From a virus, in IMG/VR virus record IMGVR_UViG_3300027976_000007, positions 1 to 64,000 of that record: a stretch of DNA of 64,000 nucleotides. One strand, written 5' to 3'. Of the stretch, positions 42,982 to 62,325 are shown piece by piece (the stretch's first letter is position 1; every line of letters starts with the position of its first letter). The position numbers and the translations under genes were made by a program. A model generated the notes under the pieces. The model was not told the DNA's origin, did not search any database, and saw only the letters and a list, made by a program, of their open reading frames with translations.

Positions 42982-43527
42982 TTACATCACCGCATATCTT
43001 AATAATCCTCCTCTGAATCCTGTCTGTAGGTATTCCTCAGGATTACTTAGTACCTTTTCTAACATATCACGAATCATTTGTTTTTCCTGTTCATAGGTAA
43101 GTGGGGGTGTATCTATGTATTGTGTGATAGAGGGTGACCATGTTAGAGTAATACTCTTCGAAGGTTCATATGTTTTTGGGTTATAAGTAATAGGTGAAAT
43201 TACACACCCATCTTTAACTGGAGTGTGGATATCTAATGGTGAATACATTTTTGGGGTAAACGATATGGTGTAAACATATCCTACTTTATTTTTGTAGGTT
43301 GGGTTTTCTGAATCTGATAGAATTGTTTCGTCAGCAACCAATAAGGTAATACCATCCTCCAATAATACCGAAGGGGCAGACATCCAAATGATTTTTTCAA
43401 ACTCAAAATGATTAATGAGTTCGGTTTCTGCTAGAATACGTTGTTCTTCCGTTAAGTTGTGAATACCCATTACCTCATAAGGTTCATTAAGTATGGATAA
43501 TAATTTTTGAGTTATACTTACTTTCAT
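42982..43527 (-). CDS. Hypothetical protein, paralog of 48236-48781
   Basis: Shared NPTYK.KVGY and FTPKMY..TPVKDGCV. Confidence 0.8.
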   Translation of the reverse strand: MKVSITQKLLSILNEPYEVMGIHNLTEEQRILAETELINHFEFEKIIWMSAPSVLLEDGITLLVADETILSDSENPTYKNKVGYVYTISFTPKMYSPLDIHTPVKDGCVISPITYNPKTYEPSKSITLTWSPSITQYIDTPPLTYEQEKQMIRDMLEKVLSNPEEYLQTGFRGGLLRYAVM

Positions 43528-45160: not shown

Positions 45161-45346
45161 TTAATATGTTATAGTGAAAGGATTATAAGGATTAGTAGGA
45201 GGATTATAAGGGATATTATAAGGATAAAAGAGATTTATCCTACTAGATTCGATTTCAGCTTTCAACAATATAACAGCCTCTTGAGGTGTTATAGAGTTTT
45301 GTTTAAGTAGTTTTTCTACTATGGAAGTTATTGTATCATTATTCAT
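45161..45346 (-). CDS. Hypothetical protein
   Basis: 61-aa coupled ORF. Confidence 0.6.
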   Translation of the reverse strand: MNNDTITSIVEKLLKQNSITPQEAVILLKAEIESSRINLFYPYNIPYNPPTNPYNPFTITY

Positions 45347-46196
45347 TGTTGTAAAAATTTAATACATTGTTTTTGATAACATTACTTATATAAAATCCTT
45401 TATCTACTAACTTTGTTGATCTAGCTTTATTAGCACTAGGTAACGCCTTTAATTGTAATAATGTTAAATGGGATTCATCAATAAATAAATTTGGTTTGGA
45501 TTTTTTGAAATAATCTGTTAAATAAAAATCTCCTAATTTTTCCCCTAAAAGTGCAATCACATCAGTATTGTAATATTCACTATCTGAAGGTAACAACATA
45601 TTAATGGTATGATCTATATGATTTTCTAATCGTTCAGCTTCTTCCAATCTACCTTCCCTATTAAAATCTCTAACTTGTTTAACCATCTCTTCATTCAATC
45701 TCCTGATGATGAAACTTTTATGTTCAGTAATTAACTCTGGCAATTGTTTTTCAAAAGTTGGAAATAAAATAGTACTGGAGCATATTAAAATAGCTTTATC
45801 GGAATAATCTAAGAAATCTTTAACTGCGTAACGTAAATCCTTATTTTCTTGATTAACAACTACTGTACCTCCTACTTTCTTATTAAGAATGTTGTGAAAA
45901 TATGGTGGTATATAAATATCATAGTTAGATACATAATATCCAACAAAGTTATCGGGGAACATTGCTACTAATTCATTATATAGCTGATATGCTAATACCT
46001 TATTAGGTGCTAAAACACTCGCGGGTTTATTTTCTCTATCGATAACATTCCCTAATACAAATGTTTTTCCTGAACCTGTTATTCCTTTTAAAGTTTGTTG
46101 TTTGTACTTACCAATTCCATCTAATAAACCATCAATTGAATTATATTGATCTTTAGTAGGAGTGAAATCGGATTTTAAATTAAATCCATTTTGCAT
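45339..46196 (-). CDS. UvrB-like helicase, N-terminal half (its last 4 aa appear to be the thioredoxin tail)
   Basis: GITGSGKT, LAPNKVLAYQLY, YYVSNYD and IDESH motifs. Confidence 0.85.
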   Translation of the reverse strand: MQNGFNLKSDFTPTKDQYNSIDGLLDGIGKYKQQTLKGITGSGKTFVLGNVIDRENKPASVLAPNKVLAYQLYNELVAMFPDNFVGYYVSNYDIYIPPYFHNILNKKVGGTVVVNQENKDLRYAVKDFLDYSDKAILICSSTILFPTFEKQLPELITEHKSFIIRRLNEEMVKQVRDFNREGRLEEAERLENHIDHTINMLLPSDSEYYNTDVIALLGEKLGDFYLTDYFKKSKPNLFIDESHLTLLQLKALPSANKARSTKLVDKGFYISNVIKNNVLNFYNNE

Positions 46197-46419
46197 AACT
46201 CTTATTTTTAAATTAACGTGGCTTCCTTACCAACACGTAAAGATACGAAAGATAGCTCGGGTATCCAAATTTTTATACCATTATAGTTTAAGTAGGCAAC
46301 TCTATTTACCTTTATTTAATTTATATAGTTCATTGTATATACCTGCAAGCAGGATATAAAGGGGTAAAAATATAACCCATAGGTCTAGTGGAGTCATAAT
46401 ATTAATTTATTTAGTTTAA

Positions 46420-46974
46420 TTATTTTAACGAGCTTCTGTATCTGTAATGTAAACACTGAATATCACCCCCGCATAAGGTTCCGTAGGTAACAAATTGTTT
46501 ACCATCAACTATAGCATTTACTTCAGCACCATCATTCCCCTTTCTAATTACGATATCACTTGCAATCATGTCATTGGTTAAGTGTTTTGCTAAAGCACGT
46601 TGTAACTTAAACATATTTACTGATATAAAGGTCTCCATATATTTTTCCTCCCAATTAGGACGTAACTGGTTCTCTAAGGTAGATATGTAATATGTTAAAT
46701 TGCCATTGTTTCTAATTGCCTTATATGCATCCTTTTCGATATATTGTTCAGGTAAGTCATAACTGGTACCACTCCAAGTCCTATGTTCGGTCATATAAAC
46801 AAACCTCTTTATACCTGTATACTGACATGCAACGCCATATCTTATTACTTCCCCATTCTCCTTAACCCATTCCTGGTGCTTAGTAAAATCAGCTTTCATG
46901 TCATTGACCTGCTTGGTAGCTAAATCTGTAACAATAACTTTAGCCTCTTCTGAAATTTTATCTAATGCGTTCAT
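46420..46974 (-). CDS. Hypothetical protein
   Basis: 184 aa; C-terminal GGDIQCLHYRY. Confidence 0.75.
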   Translation of the reverse strand: MNALDKISEEAKVIVTDLATKQVNDMKADFTKHQEWVKENGEVIRYGVACQYTGIKRFVYMTEHRTWSGTSYDLPEQYIEKDAYKAIRNNGNLTYYISTLENQLRPNWEEKYMETFISVNMFKLQRALAKHLTNDMIASDIVIRKGNDGAEVNAIVDGKQFVTYGTLCGGDIQCLHYRYRSSLK

Positions 46975-46979
46975 AACCT

Positions 46980-47198
46980 TTATTTTACAACACCAATTAC
47001 TCTATATTTCTCACTGTATCTTGTTTTGGTACAATCCCATACCATAACCTTACATTCAACTTTTTTCCCAAAATATTCTCTAACATCGGTAAATTTATCT
47101 TCATTAATTAGTATCGAATCACCTATTTCTACATCTAGGAAATAGAATATACACTCCATAAACTCCTCCATTATTACTCTTCCAAATATAGTCTCCAT
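46980..47198 (-). CDS. Hypothetical protein
   Basis: Follows promoter 47247-47278 and a GGGC-AAGAA-GCCC hairpin. Confidence 0.65.
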   Translation of the reverse strand: METIFGRVIMEEFMECIFYFLDVEIGDSILINEDKFTDVREYFGKKVECKVMVWDCTKTRYSEKYRVIGVVK

Positions 47199-47301
47199 AA
47201 CCTTTATTTTTAATTATAATATGGGCTTCTTGCCCTTATTTATGCGTAAATATACGAAAGCTTTTTCGGGTATCCAAGCTTCCTGTGCATTACTGTTAAT
47301 C

Positions 47302-47844
47302 TCATTCAGATAAAAATTCACCAAATAATTGCATATATCTCCCTTCCTCTATCTCATTTTCAAAATATTTATTTGATGGTGTTTTAATAGAAAAATCATC
47401 TCCATCAATAGAGAATACTGCTTTTTTATAACCTTTTACATATAAATCGTATCTACCATCTCCTTTATCTATAAATTTATTATATTTAGGGTTTGATTTA
47501 TGGATTCCTTGTGCTTTTACATTTTTATAACCAAAAATCTTATCCATCAACATTTTCCAAGCATCACCATGTGGTTTGGGATCACATCCAGCCGTTTCCG
47601 GTCCTAATTTAAAATAATGATGGTCATAAGCGTGACAAAGCTCATGTGCAATGGTATCTTTTTCCAATTCTGTATCCAATATAAAGGATGATAAACTGAT
47701 TAAATAATGATTTGGTCCTATATACTTACAATGTCCAAATTTAGATTTTGCCTTTGTAGATACTTCATATTTAATCTTAAGCTTCTCAACACCTAAATCA
47801 TTTGATATTTTAGTGTTTAAATTTTCTAATAATTTATTCTCCAT
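47302..47844 (-). CDS. SprT-like Zn metalloprotease
   Basis: HELCH and HG..WK..M motifs. Confidence 0.85.
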   Translation of the reverse strand: MENKLLENLNTKISNDLGVEKLKIKYEVSTKAKSKFGHCKYIGPNHYLISLSSFILDTELEKDTIAHELCHAYDHHYFKLGPETAGCDPKPHGDAWKMLMDKIFGYKNVKAQGIHKSNPKYNKFIDKGDGRYDLYVKGYKKAVFSIDGDDFSIKTPSNKYFENEIEEGRYMQLFGEFLSE

Positions 47845-47903
47845 CTTGATTTATATAAACTATGTTAATAAGTGTGCTACTTCCCAGACTTTTTTCAATT
47901 TTC

Positions 47904-48179
47904 TTATTTTGAAATTTCATCTACATCTACATTAATGTGTATTCCTAACTCCTTTAATTGTTCCGGTGATAATGGTTTTACGAGTGAGGGTTGATGTTGT
48001 TTAGGATATTCTCTTTTTAGTGGATCTTTCTTAAAGAAAAATCCTGTTATATCCGCATATCGAAGAAGTTCTTTATCTCCCTCTATAATGGTATTTCCTG
48101 ATTTTGCTTTAAGCATTACAATCTTAAATCCTAATTTATTTGTAAGCCATTTGATAAATAGTAAAGATAATCTTTCCAT
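47904..48179 (-). CDS. Hypothetical protein
   Basis: 91-aa ORF. Confidence 0.65.
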   Translation of the reverse strand: MERLSLLFIKWLTNKLGFKIVMLKAKSGNTIIEGDKELLRYADITGFFFKKDPLKREYPKQHQPSLVKPLSPEQLKELGIHINVDVDEISK

Positions 48180-48235
48180 AACTTTTATTTTTAAAATTTA
48201 TAATTTTTATATGTTAGTTTATTAATCTTATATCA

Positions 48236-48781
48236 TTATACAGCTGCAAATCTTACTATGCATCCTGTATGTTCAACTGGTCTATACTCTTCAGGATTAT
48301 CCAATACTTTTTCTAACATATCACGAATCATTTGTTTATCATCTTCATATGTTCTTTGTGGAGCCTCAATATCTTGAGGAAAGTCAGGTGACCAAGTTAG
48401 AGTAATACTTTGTTTAGGTTTATATGTTTCTGGATTGTAAGTGGTGGGGGCAAATACACATCCATCTTTTACTGGGGTATATATTGTATCCGACTCATAC
48501 ATTTTTGGAGTAAACATTAAAGTATAGATGTATCCTACTTTATGTTTATAAGTTGGGTTATCTGTATCTGATATTTTTATTGATTTTATAACAATTGGGG
48601 TTGATTTATCTTCTGTTAGTCCACCCTGAGATTTCATCCAAACAATTTTATCGAATTCAAAGTGTTTAATAAGTTCTGCCTCTACTTGTATGAGTTGTTC
48701 TTCGGTTAAGTTGTTAATACTCAAGGCGTCCATAGAGTAACCGCAAATATCTACTAGTTTTTCTGTTAAATTTGATTTCAT
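48236..48781 (-). CDS. Hypothetical protein, paralog of 42982-43527
   Basis: High similarity to 42982-43527. Confidence 0.8.
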   Translation of the reverse strand: MKSNLTEKLVDICGYSMDALSINNLTEEQLIQVEAELIKHFEFDKIVWMKSQGGLTEDKSTPIVIKSIKISDTDNPTYKHKVGYIYTLMFTPKMYESDTIYTPVKDGCVFAPTTYNPETYKPKQSITLTWSPDFPQDIEAPQRTYEDDKQMIRDMLEKVLDNPEEYRPVEHTGCIVRFAAV

Positions 48782-48856
48782 GATTTCATGATTTCATGAT
48801 TTTATTATTTTTATTATTTTTATTATTTTTATTATTTTTATTATTTTTATTATTTT
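48774..48856. repeat. Short tandem repeats (GATTTCAT) x3 and (TTTTTATTA) x ~6 over a start codon and 5' UTR
   Basis: Read directly. Confidence 0.85.
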
Positions 48857-48909
48857 AAAATATACTATAAATGTACGAAAGATAATCCGAGTAACCAAAC
48901 CTCCCTTGT

Positions 48910-48996
48910 AGATACCTCGTATTTAATCTTAAGTTTCTCAACACCTAAATCATCTGAGATTTTAGTGTTTAATTTTTCCAGTAATATATTTTTCAT
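48910..48996 (-). pseudogene. Relic of the 5' end of a second SprT-like gene (3' relic at ~49335-49375)
   Basis: Nearly identical to 47760-47844. Confidence 0.75.
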
Positions 48997-49010
48997 TTTC
49001 TTTTATTTAC

Positions 49011-49235
49011 TTAATCCCTAATAATAAATTCATCACCTACAATACAATCTCCATTATCAATAAAATGTAAAATTTTATTTTTCAAACCATCACTTTTATT
49101 ATCACATTCTATAATCTCTTTAGTTAATAAATTCTGAACAACACAACTTTCAACATAACTAGAATGTGTACAATTAAAATGTCCCTTTACTTCTTCTATT
49201 ACATTTTTTACTTCTAATACTTTAAATCTTTCCAT
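49011..49235 (-). CDS. Hypothetical protein
   Basis: Follows promoter 49285-49316. Confidence 0.65.
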   Translation of the reverse strand: MERFKVLEVKNVIEEVKGHFNCTHSSYVESCVVQNLLTKEIIECDNKSDGLKNKILHFIDNGDCIVGDEFIIRD

Positions 49236-49395
49236 AACTTTTATTTTTTAATTATCAATTGGGCTTCTAACCCCTCTTACCCTATGAAGATACGAACCCT
49301 ATTTGAGGTAGTCAAGCTTCCGGTGTATTACTGTTAGATTTTATCAAACAAAAATTCACTAAATAGTTACCCACTTCAATAAAAAATACTAATTT

Positions 49396-50037
49396 TTAAA
49401 TACTACCTATTAAACTTAATTGTTTTTCCCTCCTATATTCAATCTCTTCAATTGCTCCCTCTAATGAAGATGATATATGATTACAACACATAAAAACTTC
49501 TCCATTTGTATTTCTAGCAGCTCTACCTGATACTTGAATTAAACATGATTTAGTACGTAGAAAATTATTTCTACTAGCTTGCTCAACAATAACTAAGGAA
49601 CATTGTTTTACATCAATCCCCTCACGTAACATATTAATACCAATAATAACATTAATTTTACCACTACGTAAATCTCTTAAAATCTCTTTACGTTTATTTT
49701 GTTTTATTTTGAAATGTATAACTTCACTATCAATATTATTGTATGAGAGTAAAATATGAATATCATTAACTGATCTTCTAGATATACAGTTTATAAAAAC
49801 AGTTTCACCTTTTTTTACTATATTTTTAATATCATTAATCATAACATTACTTCCAAAATAATCCCCCTCCTTAAGAGTTAATTTAGGATCTACTATATTA
49901 TTAGGACGGGTTAATAATTCCGAAATATATTCACTATTTTCTAATTCAAATTTTGATGGAGTAGCGGACATATAAGTTATTGTGTTTACTCTATCTTTTA
50001 AATCATCAAAATTTAATATTTGTTCTTTATTTAACAT
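49396..50037 (-). CDS. UvrB-like helicase, C-terminal half, in frame with the upstream thioredoxin
   Basis: MSATP, RP...DP, GINMLREGID and QVSGRAARN motifs. Confidence 0.85.
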   Translation of the reverse strand: MLNKEQILNFDDLKDRVNTITYMSATPSKFELENSEYISELLTRPNNIVDPKLTLKEGDYFGSNVMINDIKNIVKKGETVFINCISRRSVNDIHILLSYNNIDSEVIHFKIKQNKRKEILRDLRSGKINVIIGINMLREGIDVKQCSLVIVEQASRNNFLRTKSCLIQVSGRAARNTNGEVFMCCNHISSSLEGAIEEIEYRREKQLSLIGSI

Positions 50038-50240
50038 TCCTATAGTTCTTTGAATTTCTACTCCATCTTTTAATAGGATTAAACATGGAATATTTTTAAC
50101 GTGATATTTTACACGTAATTGACTTTCTAGATCTACATCTACTCTTGTAAATGATATTTGATTGGAAAGAGAATCCCTGATGGGGCTTAAGGTTTTGCAT
50201 GGTAAACACCAATCTGACGTAAAGTATAATATTTTTTCAT
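50008..50240 (-). pseudogene. Thioredoxin (WCLPC), interrupted near its C-terminus; ATG is 1 nt out of frame in an A-run
   Basis: Translated by hand: ILYFTSDWCLPCKTLSP...VKNIPCLILLKDGVEIQRTIGMLNKEQILNF. Confidence 0.8.
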
Positions 50241-50334
50241 TATATTTTAATATAATTAATATAAGGTATTAAGCCAATTTATCTTTTAAAAGCTCGTGAA
50301 GATATTTCTTTTTCTTTATCGTTTTCCATAATTT

Positions 50335-50943
50335 TCAATTACTTAGTTTCAGTTTTATGTTTGGATGGTTTTCATATCCGTTTAGGTAAAAATCGCTTAT
50401 TTCTAGGTTATTAATAAATTCAACTCCTTTTCTATCTGGGTTCCAGAATTCATCATTTATAACAAGTGTTGGTAAATCGTATGGTTCCCTAGTTAATTGT
50501 TCTTTAAGTCCATCTTTATGATTGTTATAGATATGAGTATCTCCTAAACTGCCAACCAACATATCAGGGACCATATTAACTTCTTTTGCAATTATTGATA
50601 ATAATAAACCATATGAAGCTATGTTATAGGGTAAACCCAACCCAACATCAACTGATCTTTGATTCCATATTAAGGAGATTGCTCTTGTTGGGACACGGTT
50701 AGCTCTCATATCGTCTTCTTCATTCTCTAAACCAGCTTCTAAATGTTCTAAAATGACATTGTTTTGTAGGCACCAATTTCTTCGCTCACCCATAGACAAT
50801 TTTCTTGTATAAACTTGAAATCCATAATGGCATGGTGGTAATACTTGCTTACCTTCAGTTATATTTTTTAATCCATACCTTTTGTTAAATTTAATATTAC
50901 ATTTTAATTCTTTTAAGAATGCTTCTTTATTTAAAGGCTTCAT
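50335..50943 (-). CDS. thyA: Thymidylate synthase, C-terminal subunit
   Basis: LPPCH, QRSVD, PYN and GDTHIY motifs. Confidence 0.92.
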   Translation of the reverse strand: MKPLNKEAFLKELKCNIKFNKRYGLKNITEGKQVLPPCHYGFQVYTRKLSMGERRNWCLQNNVILEHLEAGLENEEDDMRANRVPTRAISLIWNQRSVDVGLGLPYNIASYGLLLSIIAKEVNMVPDMLVGSLGDTHIYNNHKDGLKEQLTREPYDLPTLVINDEFWNPDRKGVEFINNLEISDFYLNGYENHPNIKLKLSN

Positions 50944-50963
50944 ATATTTTATATTTTTAAAAT

Positions 50964-51596
50964 TTATTGCTTTTTTGATTGGGTAAAATCTTTTAAATAT
51001 ATTTGATAAAGTTCATCAGATGTTCTATTATCTGTTACGGGTAAATCCGCGGGGTTCCATGCCGATACTAACATCCTACGAGAATCTGGATTGGTTCTTA
51101 GTTCGTGTATTATGTCGGAGATCTGATCTATTGAATCCTTTATTGTAAGGGAATACGCTTTATTTTGAATGGCAGGATGGTTTGTGTCAAAACGTATATT
51201 CCAATTCCTCCATTGTTTACCATATATGGGACCTAGTTCCCCCCACTTCTTTGCGAATTCGATATTAGTTTTTATCTCATGTATAAATTCTTTTCTAGTA
51301 AGTGGTTTACCATCCTTTAGATAATTAGAGAAGCAATCCCCCACCCAAATATTATTCCCATTCTCCACCAAGTATTTAATGTTCGTGTCACCTCTCAAAA
51401 ACCAAATAAGTTCTGATACAATGTTCTCAAAATTGATTTCCTTTGTTGTAAGTATAGGAAATCCATCTTTCATGTTATGTGTTATATGCATACCAAATAT
51501 GCTGGAAGTTCCGGTCCCCGTCCTATCTGATTTATCGTAACCATTCAATAGAATATGTTCTACTAAATCTAGATATTGTTTGTCTAGTTTATTCAA
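50964..51596 (-). CDS. thyA: Thymidylate synthase, N-terminal subunit
   Basis: DRTGTGT, FPILTTK, ELIWF, LGPIYG.QWR and DSRR...SAWN motifs. Confidence 0.92.
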   Translation of the reverse strand: MNKLDKQYLDLVEHILLNGYDKSDRTGTGTSSIFGMHITHNMKDGFPILTTKEINFENIVSELIWFLRGDTNIKYLVENGNNIWVGDCFSNYLKDGKPLTRKEFIHEIKTNIEFAKKWGELGPIYGKQWRNWNIRFDTNHPAIQNKAYSLTIKDSIDQISDIIHELRTNPDSRRMLVSAWNPADLPVTDNRTSDELYQIYLKDFTQSKKQ

Positions 51597-60099: not shown

Positions 60100-62325
60100 T
60101 CATATTACTTCACATGAGGATCCTTGACATGCAATACTTCCCATAGTATCAATATCAGCATATGAAGGTTTAGTTAATACTGAAGTGTAATCTATTAAAG
60201 ATATGTTTTGGGTTATTTGATTCCATTTATGCCATAGATGAACATCCTTCATACAATATATAGTTTTTTCTAAATCTTTTTTGAAATAATTAGAAGCAAA
60301 TTTCTTTACTCTTCTTATCCAATCTTTTTTAAGAAGGACTTGGGTTCTAGAACCTTCTATCGTCATATTTTTATCTTGGACGTGTTGTGTAGCTTTCCAT
60401 AAATTATCATTAAAATAATGTAAACCATCCACAATTAACCCTGCCATAAAAATCACCCCATCTCCATATTTATTAACTAGCTCTTGAGTAGTAAGTACTG
60501 AAGTAAATGGGGCTTGAGCATAATCTTTATCCCCTGTTTGGGGTAAGAAAGATACGGCAGCGAATTCATTTTGATGTTTAAAGATATAATCTGTCATTTC
60601 ATTCATATCATCAATGATTATAGTATTAGATACATTATGGGAAGTTTCTGGTAAATAACATAGCTCTTTATTTTTTCCTCCTTTAATCCAGGAATTTTGG
60701 ACTAAGCGGATCAGTTCTAGATGTTTTACCCCCATCATTTCACTTTTATATAAGGTACCTTTAGGATTTTCAAAAGGACAATATACAACATAATCGGTGT
60801 TTGTAGCAGACCAAGAGGATTCTTCTAACATTTCGGGATTATGTATTTCTAAATATTTAGCCGTCTCACTGTCCTTATTTAACTGCATTATTCTAAAATA
60901 ATTTTGGGAATGTTCGGGATGGATTCCTGAGGGAGATTTTAAAATCACAGAAGCATTACCCGATGGTTTTACTGTTGTACATCTAGCCGCTTGGTTAATT
61001 CCTAAAAATTCAGCAACTTCCTTATTAGTATCTTTTACTATTTGAGCCCCTTTAATTAATATTTCCTTATTAAAAAGTTCTGGTCGAGCCATCCACCCCG
61101 TTATAGAAACTCCTAATAAAGCCTCTCCAGCTACTATTTCTTCTGTTTCTTTTCCTAAGTAAGGGAATGAAGTATATCCGGCCTGTAAAGTCCCAACAAT
61201 AGAAGCATTTCTGCAAATTTTGTAAAATGTTTCTTCATTAAACTTGTTGTTGGTTTTGTTAGAACATGAGAGGGCATCTATTTCATTTAAATTGCAAAAC
61301 TGGAAAACTGATTCGTTTAGGTTTTTTATTTTGGTATAAAAATTGAATTGGATTTCAAAACATGGATTAAACATATCATCTTCATGAGACATGAAAACAA
61401 AACCTAAATCACTATCTCCTTGATTAATTTCAACTAGATTTAAAAATTCCTCTTTCGAGAACTTACCTCTAAGAAGACCCACAGAATTATTACTTCTAGC
61501 TCTTTGAGGGTTATCTATATACCATGTTCCCGTTTTAGCGTTTATTAGATCAGTATCGTCTTGATCCATTATTATATTCATAGCACTTCTTCTTACTCCA
61601 CCTGACAACACCGCATCTGATAAATGCATAAAGATATCATATATTAGTATAGATTTAAAGGGAATTTGAAGTTTGTCTCCTAAAGCAGAATTTATTAAAT
61701 TTTCTATTTTTTCTAAAGCTTGTTTTAACCCTTCGGGTCCTGGGGCTTTAAACCCTCCAGAAATCAAAGACCCTTTGGGTCTTACTAGAGAGTAATCAAA
61801 TTTTATTTGATACCCAAAATATTCTTCATATAATGATGGATGGGAACAAAAGGAAGATATTAGTACTTTACAAGCTTCAGACCACCCCTCCACTGAGTCT
61901 TCTACTATATGCTGTTTAGCTTCTTTTGAGTCTCTTTTTACTAATGGAGGTAATAAACTTACATATTTATTTTTTAGAGATATTCCCAACCCTGTACCTG
62001 CTAAAAGAACGAAAAATCCTTTATTAAAAATATCTGGAGAGTAGGCATATGTAACACAACAGTTATACATCCTAGCATGGTTTTTTAGTAAATGTTTCCC
62101 TCTAAATTGGAGATTTCTTTGAGAAGCTAGGAATTCTTTTTCTTTATATGATTCCATAACTTCATCAAGATAGGGTTGTATTTTATCCCCATATTTCATG
62201 GTATGGGTGTTTAATACTCCTTCAACCGCTTCATTCCATGTTTCATAACGATTTAGGGATTCATCCCATTTTAAATAATCGGTGTATAGTTTTAGTTGAG
62301 ATAAAAATTCTTTTCCTTTTGACAT
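60100..62325 (-). CDS. nrdJ: Ribonucleotide reductase, probably class II (B12-dependent)
   Basis: NC, GGVRRSA, NPCFEI, CNLNE, VKPSG motifs and C-terminal CxxxxC. Confidence 0.75.
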   Translation of the reverse strand: MSKGKEFLSQLKLYTDYLKWDESLNRYETWNEAVEGVLNTHTMKYGDKIQPYLDEVMESYKEKEFLASQRNLQFRGKHLLKNHARMYNCCVTYAYSPDIFNKGFFVLLAGTGLGISLKNKYVSLLPPLVKRDSKEAKQHIVEDSVEGWSEACKVLISSFCSHPSLYEEYFGYQIKFDYSLVRPKGSLISGGFKAPGPEGLKQALEKIENLINSALGDKLQIPFKSILIYDIFMHLSDAVLSGGVRRSAMNIIMDQDDTDLINAKTGTWYIDNPQRARSNNSVGLLRGKFSKEEFLNLVEINQGDSDLGFVFMSHEDDMFNPCFEIQFNFYTKIKNLNESVFQFCNLNEIDALSCSNKTNNKFNEETFYKICRNASIVGTLQAGYTSFPYLGKETEEIVAGEALLGVSITGWMARPELFNKEILIKGAQIVKDTNKEVAEFLGINQAARCTTVKPSGNASVILKSPSGIHPEHSQNYFRIMQLNKDSETAKYLEIHNPEMLEESSWSATNTDYVVYCPFENPKGTLYKSEMMGVKHLELIRLVQNSWIKGGKNKELCYLPETSHNVSNTIIIDDMNEMTDYIFKHQNEFAAVSFLPQTGDKDYAQAPFTSVLTTQELVNKYGDGVIFMAGLIVDGLHYFNDNLWKATQHVQDKNMTIEGSRTQVLLKKDWIRRVKKFASNYFKKDLEKTIYCMKDVHLWHKWNQITQNISLIDYTSVLTKPSYADIDTMGSIACQGSSCEVI

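Follow-up and report, generated by a model that had tools for sequence, protein, structure and literature searches.

How does a gene come to lie in a phage genome with its two halves in swapped order, each joined to a piece of another gene? The question is raised by a UvrB-like helicase gene and a thioredoxin gene (trx) in the first 64 kb (64,000 nucleotides, hereafter the window) of the IMG/VR viral contig IMGVR_UViG_3300027976_000007, which is 142,110 bp long (CheckV completeness 88%) and represents a phage that we call W. Phage W, from environmental samples and with a G+C content of about 30%, is a T4-related phage: it encodes a major capsid protein of the gp23-type family that marks T4-type phages (PF07068, E=2e-73), together with a RecA/UvsX-like ORF and a B-family DNA polymerase. 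A first-pass annotation of the window had noted that two permuted uvrB halves flank a 4654-bp segment lying within trx, and had offered as explanations a minicircle captured from a related phage or a reversible excision switch. Our analysis favours a fixed insertion, probably generated by one illegitimate crossover between trx and a circular, or circle-equivalent, fragment of donor DNA.

Interlocked halves of uvrB and trx

On the minus strand and in the order of transcription, the C-half of the helicase gene (49396-50037, 213-aa product) precedes the N-half (45339-46196, 285-aa product), the two halves being about 3.2 kb apart. The N-half ends in ..NNVLNF followed by YNNE and a stop codon, while the C-half frame reads ..EQILNF followed by DDLKDRVNTITYMSATP. 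At both joints lies the direct repeat AAAATTTAATA (45354-45364 and 50008-50018), which delimits a unit of 4654 bp. The order of the halves, the residues at which both of them break and the presence of the 11-mer at both joints had all been described in the first-pass annotation and agree with our reading, as does the geometry drawn from them, in which a crossover between the 11-mers would yield a 4654-bp circle with an intact 484-aa UvrB and would restore the 3' end of trx.

The frame that carries the C-half is open from stop to stop (49396-50268, minus strand) and follows the thymidylate synthase gene (thyA). It begins with a thioredoxin that contains WCLPC and continues in frame into the UvrB-like C-half. 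The thioredoxin, earlier recognized from the letters, matched PF00085 (E=1.5e-13, 51 bits against a cut-off of 23.5) with the CxxC active site present, and the helicase part of the frame matched Helicase_C (1e-16) and, weakly, the UvrB motif in Pfam. A thioredoxin with the tail expected from the rejoined gene was sought among relatives. Those found, at most 49% identical, begin with MKKILYF.. and end in ILNFYN, ILNFYNG or ILNFYK, and in many of their contigs the gene lies directly upstream of queD-queE. In phage W the YNNE tail runs into the beginning of a resident 61-aa gene (45161-45346), relatives of which were also sought and none obtained, and queD comes next. The endings of the related thioredoxins, the synteny with queD-queE and the overlap of the tail with the 61-aa gene indicate that trx is resident and in its original place, and that the 4654 bp were inserted into it.

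In the window trx is not a complete translatable gene, as its 3' end has been replaced by the UvrB C-half and the native ATG (50238-50240) does not lie in frame, the A-run at 50232-50237 consisting of six A residues. The six-residue run is present in the window and in five other assemblies, and the closest relatives, L006 and L007, have seven. Before the Met at 50037, the thioredoxin part of the frame contains no in-frame ATG, GTG or TTG, so that a translated Trx-UvrB(C) fusion protein is unlikely; of the fusion frame proposed earlier, the open frame stood and its translation found no support. Because the 5' frameshift is fixed, excision of the segment would not restore the thioredoxin. A search of the whole 142-kb contig with PF00085 yielded no second thioredoxin.

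The joints are real and do not reflect an assembly artefact. The exact 285-aa and 213-aa joint proteins were found on 9-10 contigs, 99.6-100% identical to the window, in independent assemblies from JGI (3300027983, 3300007523 and 3300007722), ENA (ERZ27247425) and Logan (SRR5208886 and SRR5208770), and 11 bp are too short to mislead a k-mer assembler. The joint-bearing population is at least 99.6% identical, and the split form was seen in that one population only.

Intact compact uvrB genes, also sought in relatives, were found in five loci, three of them viral contigs (L003, L004 and L005) and two metagenome contigs (L072 and L073), in all of which the helicase is a single gene of 484-486 aa that reads continuously ..NNVLNF-DDLKDR... 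When the window halves are rejoined, they are identical to L003 across 102 nt spanning the joint; the initial 55 nt or so of the C-half are L003-like (99%), and the remainder is 96% identical to L005. This identity across the joint, together with the L003-like tract that reaches about 55 nt into the C-half, indicates that the two halves were once one gene. In agreement with this, a search of 5.8 billion proteins gave 16 clusters of the compact helicase (479-536 aa, 55-96% identical), every one of which was continuous at the break residue, and a stand-alone C-half was confined to the window's own cluster.

The 11-mer alone is not significant, since at least three copies occurred in 13 of 100 shuffled sequences; in the window a third copy lies on the opposite strand at 61693. 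It is the reciprocal gene halves, and not the 11-mer itself, that are significant. At the 11-mer both trx and uvrB encode (I/V)LNF, in AT-rich codons, and a further stretch of about 30 nt on its left side is weakly similar between them (1.4% of random pairs score as high).

By its helicase core the protein belongs with UvrB, as the intact relative L003 matched UvrB chains in the PDB at E=5e-83, the next family being eIF4A (1e-8), and the window halves jointly carry UvrB motifs I (GSGKT), II (DESH) and III (SAT) as well as RecA-like domain 2. According to the first-pass annotation the protein appeared to lack much of domain 2 and the C-terminal UVR domain, which was borne out both by alignment and by domain searches. 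The alignment skips UvrB residues ~150-237, that is, the UvrA-interaction domain 2 (PF17757), which is present in the cellular matches and in none of the 16 compact clusters, and the compact protein ends at UvrB residue ~574 of 661, before the UvrC-binding UVR domain (PF02151, no match in the 16 compact clusters). Lacking both domains, the compact UvrB is probably no partner of UvrA and UvrC.

The break corresponds to UvrB F379/E380, 13 residues ahead of the SAT motif, and falls within RecA-like domain 1 and at no domain boundary. In an AlphaFold model of an intact relative (pLDDT 90.5) it is located at residue 281, preceding the SAT-carrying strand 291-295, which, from the architecture of SF2 helicases, we take to belong to RecA-like domain 1; the N-half would therefore be deprived of a core strand.

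The compact phage UvrB-like helicases without UvrA- or UvrC-binding domains form a family of at least the 16 clusters described above. No INPHARED phage genome matched at the DNA level, and the protein matches were only to cellular-type UvrB in contaminated or transducing records; we found no literature specific to phage compact UvrB-like helicases. In four of the five relatives the compact uvrB adjoins a SprT-like metalloprotease gene (L003:2702-4713, L004:6319-8312, L072:2088-4098 and L073:5434-7489), and the two genes may form a phage repair module for DNA-protein crosslinks or other lesions.

Foreign origin and probable route of entry

Sequence comparison marks the insert as foreign, with a donor lineage represented by L003, L004, L005 and L073. 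Its genes are 85-99% identical in DNA to those of the donor lineage, whereas the backbone genes in common are 65-70% identical. In addition, a cassette of about 100 nt with conserved sigma-70-like hexamers (TTGGAT/TTGACT - 16/17 nt - TATCTT/TATATT, promoter activity being predicted from sequence) is located upstream of the N-half, of a 72-aa gene and of a 74-aa gene. With a profile of the cassette, three copies were detected in the 142-kb genome, all three inside the insert, and two to six copies in each of the loci L003, L004, L005, L072 and L073; a fixed-spacing pattern gave no matches, the spacing being variable. Both the insert-only cassettes and the difference in identity speak for the captured minicircle from a related phage, one of the two origins originally envisaged. 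In the donor lineage uvrB lies in a variable region that is syntenic to ~132.4-134.4 kb of phage W, which has no uvrB there. Since the gene order around uvrB differs in every relative, this neighbourhood is, on the evidence of these loci, a region of frequent shuffling.

An integrase-driven element does not describe the segment. No recombinase, transposase or homing endonuclease was found in it when ORFs of at least 61 aa were searched against Pfam and PHROGs, in accordance with the earlier statement that no recombinase was visible, and the only domains detected were those of the helicase, the thioredoxin and the SprT-like protein.

The insert starts and ends at the same base of uvrB and the halves are swapped in order, which argues that the incoming DNA was a circle or was copied in the manner of one. 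We propose that the ancestor of phage W had the order thyA - trx - 61-aa gene - queD - queE, and that the donor piece of 4654 bp comprised an intact compact uvrB, the SprT-like gene, five small genes and the lineage's own cassettes. During a mixed infection, this piece would have been released in the donor phage as a circle by recombination between repeated promoter cassettes, cassette c1 immediately upstream of the N-half being a possible closure point. A single crossover between the circle and trx would then have taken place at the chance 11-bp identity, next to which some 30 bp are weakly similar, presumably by means of the phage's general recombination and replication machinery; that phage W is T4-related and has a RecA/UvsX-like gene supports such a role. 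Entry would thus have been off-target, as opposed to the cassette-to-cassette exchange of the promoter-early stem-loop (PeSL) model. The outcome would have been the delivery of the six cargo genes that are intact in the insert, at the price of breaking both uvrB and trx. The base missing from the 5' A-run of trx may have been lost since the insertion or already before it.

Several observations weigh against this account. Only the topology of the insert points to a circular intermediate, and the point at which the circle closed was not located, the interval 46289-46409 of the window matching nothing. When viral and metagenome collections were scanned with a degenerate pattern for the four joint types, only intact uvrB genes of other alleles and two chance matches were returned; no W-type circle joint, donor allele or empty site was found, in scans from which records near the window may be hidden, and no intact protein joins the window's N-type and C-type halves. 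The three cassettes resemble sigma-70-type promoters, but no consistent or shared stem-loop and no terminator-like site was seen in them (folding z-scores 0.76, -1.92 and 0.69), so that they are at most putative PeSLs. In ERZ27247425 the two joints are on different contigs, and the linkage between them comes from short-read assemblies. Finally, the split would presumably have cost the helicase its function, yet both halves are open, with no stop codons, no frameshifts and no clear excess of amino-acid changes. Relative to L003 they have 6 synonymous and 3 non-synonymous codon changes, and private changes at otherwise invariant columns number only 2+1. Decay of the halves was considered and set aside, the changes being too few for a call. 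From the absence of stops and of a clear excess of amino-acid changes it follows that the insertion is recent or that the halves are still somewhat constrained.

Of the other explanations, the one that fares best dispenses with a free circle. In copy choice around a 'virtual circle', or tandem-duplication copying, the same foreign DNA and the same microhomology would be used, the copying passing from trx to the donor uvrB at the 11-mer, on through the cargo, by a cassette-to-cassette switch to the front of uvrB, and back into trx at the 11-mer. The footprint would be identical, the donor lineage has repeated cassettes in suitable places, and replication of T4-type phages is recombination-dependent (discussed in PMC2839356). 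However, three template switches would be required, two of them at the same 11-bp site, as compared with one crossover for the circle, and it is circles of this kind that have been demonstrated experimentally in T4-type phages (PMC2839356). We therefore consider copy choice unlikely, though it deserves to be taken seriously.

It would also be conceivable that the split helicase is functional, the 285-aa and 213-aa products assembling in trans and selection keeping the arrangement. Split phage enzymes that work in trans include nrdA of Aeromonas phage Aeh1 and g43 polymerases. Split g43 polymerases are mentioned in PMC2839356. Both halves of the window helicase are open and most of their differences from L003 and L005 are synonymous, but most of these synonymous differences are probably older than the event. 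Moreover, the break lies inside RecA-like domain 1 and leaves the N-half without the motif III (SAT) strand, the split form is limited to one population at least 99.6% identical, and all 16 clusters of the family are single genes. On balance, assembly in trans is very unlikely.

We give still less credence to the segment being a still-active, integrase-free mobile circle that leaves at the 11-mers during infection at a useful rate. If it were, an unbroken uvrB would be present solely on the mini-circle after excision, perhaps in packaged form, the permuted copy in the chromosome would serve for storage, and the system would be a DNA-level on-switch and a vehicle spreading cargo between phages. 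A reversible switch, the second of the origins first envisaged, would toggle uvrB and trx during infection by excision and re-entry at the 11-mers. The unit is indeed flanked by direct repeats, and excision would rebuild the intact 484-aa gene; yet it would leave trx unrestored, as the 5' frameshift is fixed in five assemblies, the segment has no recombinase, 11 bp are far short of what efficient homologous exchange needs, and neither an empty site nor a W-type circle joint appeared in the viral and metagenome collections, where near-window records may be hidden. Such a switch is thus scarcely credible.

The remaining possibility, that the real phage DNA contains no such joints or has them in another order, draws on the origin of the contig from short-read metagenome data. 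Several short-read assemblies break at the 9-bp tandem repeat at 48800-48856, and their pieces overlap consistently with the window order. One ENA assembly joins phage W to a separate, co-occurring and otherwise unrelated phage, Z, at the 181-aa gene. The two ERZ27247425 contigs concerned exchange W and Z sequence reciprocally at a 29-nt identity in the 3' end of this gene, and phage Z (GH16 - 181-aa gene - LOG - sulfatase and further genes) is contiguous in at least five assemblies. We read the odd contigs as chimeras or rare recombinants and not as the ancestral state; a derivation of the joints from two genomes, or from reciprocal phage exchange plus deletion, was rejected as the odd contigs are W/Z swaps. 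An artefact is highly improbable, since both joints recur base for base in at least six sample accessions and three pipelines, the sequence shared at the joints is only 11 bp, no repeat inside the insert is long or similar enough for reordering, and G000, JGI 3300027983 and four other similar places show the W order.

Other features of the insert and of phage W

The coordinates of all features of the locus are collected in Table 1, in the order of transcription.

Table 1. Features of the trx-uvrB locus of phage W (window coordinates)
Feature	Position	Strand	Evidence or remark
Resident thioredoxin, 5' four-fifths, WCLPC	50019-50241	minus	PF00085 E=1.5e-13; 53.4 bits in the genome-wide PF00085 search
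Crossover microhomology copy 1 (TATTAAATTTT on the minus strand), Trx/UvrB-C joint J1	50008-50018	minus	Joint sequence, repeat search
UvrB-like C-half: motif III (SAT) strand, RecA-like domain 2, UvrB motif	49396-50007	minus	Helicase_C 1e-16
Promoter-like cassette c3, upstream of 74-aa gene; TTGACT-17-TATCTT	49233-49335	minus	nhmmer 1.4e-26; sigma-70-like hexamers
74-aa cargo gene; after uvrB also in L005 and L073	49011-49235	minus	98% nt identity to L005
Truncated 5' fragment of SprT-like gene	48865-48996	minus	Duplicates 47751-47857, 85% identity
Tandem repeats, 9 bp x 6.3 (perfect), then 8 bp 'ATCATGAA' x 4.8	48773-48856	minus	Upstream of 181-aa gene
181-aa cargo gene	48236-48781	minus	Paralogue of resident 42982-43527; 93% DNA identity to phage Z gene
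91-aa cargo gene	47904-48179	minus	ORF
SprT-like metalloprotease gene, usual uvrB neighbour in donor lineage	47302-47844	minus	PF10263 2e-12; 92% nt identity to L003
Promoter-like cassette c2, upstream of 72-aa gene	47196-47296	minus	nhmmer 3.8e-26; sigma-70-like hexamers
72-aa cargo gene	46980-47198	minus	ORF
184-aa cargo gene; homologue downstream of uvrB in L003	46420-46974	minus	85% nt identity to L003
Promoter-like cassette c1, immediately upstream of UvrB N-half	46194-46288	minus	Cassette at same position in L003, L004, L005 and L072
UvrB-like N-half: Walker A GSGKT, beta-hairpin region, DESH	45365-46196	minus	Pfam ResIII; 98.9% nt identity to L003
Crossover microhomology copy 2, UvrB-N/Trx-tail joint J2	45354-45364	minus	Joint sequence, repeat search
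Thioredoxin last four codons and stop (YNNE, stop)	45339-45353	minus	Ends of relatives' Trx; Trx-queD-queE synteny

Within the insert, a 107-nt duplicate of the 5' end of the SprT-like gene (48903-49009 versus 47751-47857, 85%) brackets the tandem repeat and the 181-aa and 91-aa genes. This block may be an older, nested insertion that entered in the same manner, via a circle and short homology. A duplication of the 3' end of uvrB around the 74-aa gene, considered as a third nested footprint, was rejected, the match being merely low-complexity similarity. The tandem repeats at 48773-48856 place nested ATGs immediately upstream of the start of the 181-aa gene. In the otherwise unmatched 120 nt between the 184-aa gene and cassette c1 lies a hydrophobic mini-ORF of 31 codons (46302-46397, minus strand), for which no relatives were found among the fetched loci.

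The 181-aa gene family occurs twice in phage W (48236-48781 and 42982-43527, 56% aa identity). It also occurs near the que and thyA genes of many relatives, and contigs often end at it (loci with the family: L036, L041 and L075-L082). In phage Z (L075, L076 and L080) an unusual accessory set in a single block encodes a GH16 glycoside hydrolase, a LOG-like protein, a sulfatase, a poly(A) polymerase-like protein, an HD domain protein, FKBP, a thioredoxin, DnaJ and two DNA methyltransferases.

On the resident side, phage W carries a queuosine-type set, queC, queD, queE and folE, on the minus strand. The thymidylate synthase region of the window (50335-51596, minus strand) consists of two ORFs of 210 aa and 202 aa in different frames, 20 nt apart, with about 60 additional residues between the conserved motifs ..NPADLP and LPPCH... 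Among the relatives, some thyA loci gave the same two-part match pattern, several having insertions of about 1 kb, and others have one continuous gene. The thymidylate synthase gene of the window might encode a two-piece enzyme, contain a frameshift site or be in decay.

Relation to known systems

Inverse PCR on cultures infected with T4-type phages has revealed integrase-free mini-circles that form between promoter cassettes, and a role as vectors of gene transfer was proposed for them (PMC2839356). The insert of phage W resembles these PeSL mini-circles (Arbiol et al. 2010, PMC2839356; Comeau et al. 2014, PMC4122927) in its T4-related host, in the absence of an integrase, in being a small multi-gene unit with repeated promoter-type cassettes of its own, in its transfer between related phages in a variable region, and in that a circle is the simplest explanation. 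The cassettes are repeated, about 100 bp long, flank small genes and contain hexamers of the early promoter type, as predicted from sequence. In contrast to PeSL circles, which form and re-enter at intergenic cassettes, the event proposed here would have used an 11-bp chance match inside the coding sequences of trx and uvrB. Both genes were broken, with swapped gene halves left behind, the cassettes have no consistent stem-loop, and the circle is deduced from the sequence of the locus.

The topology is that of Campbell-type integration, as in lambda-like prophages and suicide plasmids, in which one reciprocal crossover duplicates the shared sequence and permutes the circle. Here, however, there is no att site, no integrase and no long homology, the core being 11 bp, and the target is the genome of a lytic-type T4-like phage instead of a bacterial chromosome. 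Illegitimate deletions and duplications in phage T4, described in rII deletion studies, begin and end at short direct repeats (about 10 bp) within AT-rich sequence. The use of short direct repeats and of the general replication and recombination machinery is common to those events and to the one proposed for phage W, the difference being that resident DNA was deleted or duplicated in T4, while here foreign DNA was inserted and permuted. How much homology T4 recombination needs is considered in PMC2839356. As for the helicase, it shares with bacterial UvrB (PDB 9gy7, 1d9z and 2fdc) GSGKT, the YY..Y hairpin region, DESH, SAT and the motifs of RecA-like domain 2, and differs in the absence of domain 2 and of the UVR domain and, in the window, also in being split.

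The kind of event is already known, namely integrase-free, short-homology shuffling in T4-type phages, and phage W provides an unusually clean natural footprint of it. Clear natural footprints of the entry of a circle into a genome are scarce, and it is difficult to see how uvrB halves that are swapped in order, flank the cargo and interlock with the halves of trx could have arisen unless a circular or circle-like intermediate was involved. As the donor lineage can be identified, the locus offers a concrete example, open to checking, of gene capture without an integrase among wild T4-like phages. It suggests that such capture can take place off-target, at a chance match of 11 bp, and at the cost of two genes, and it provides a signature with which more events of this kind may be sought: gene halves in swapped order, each with a reciprocal partner half.

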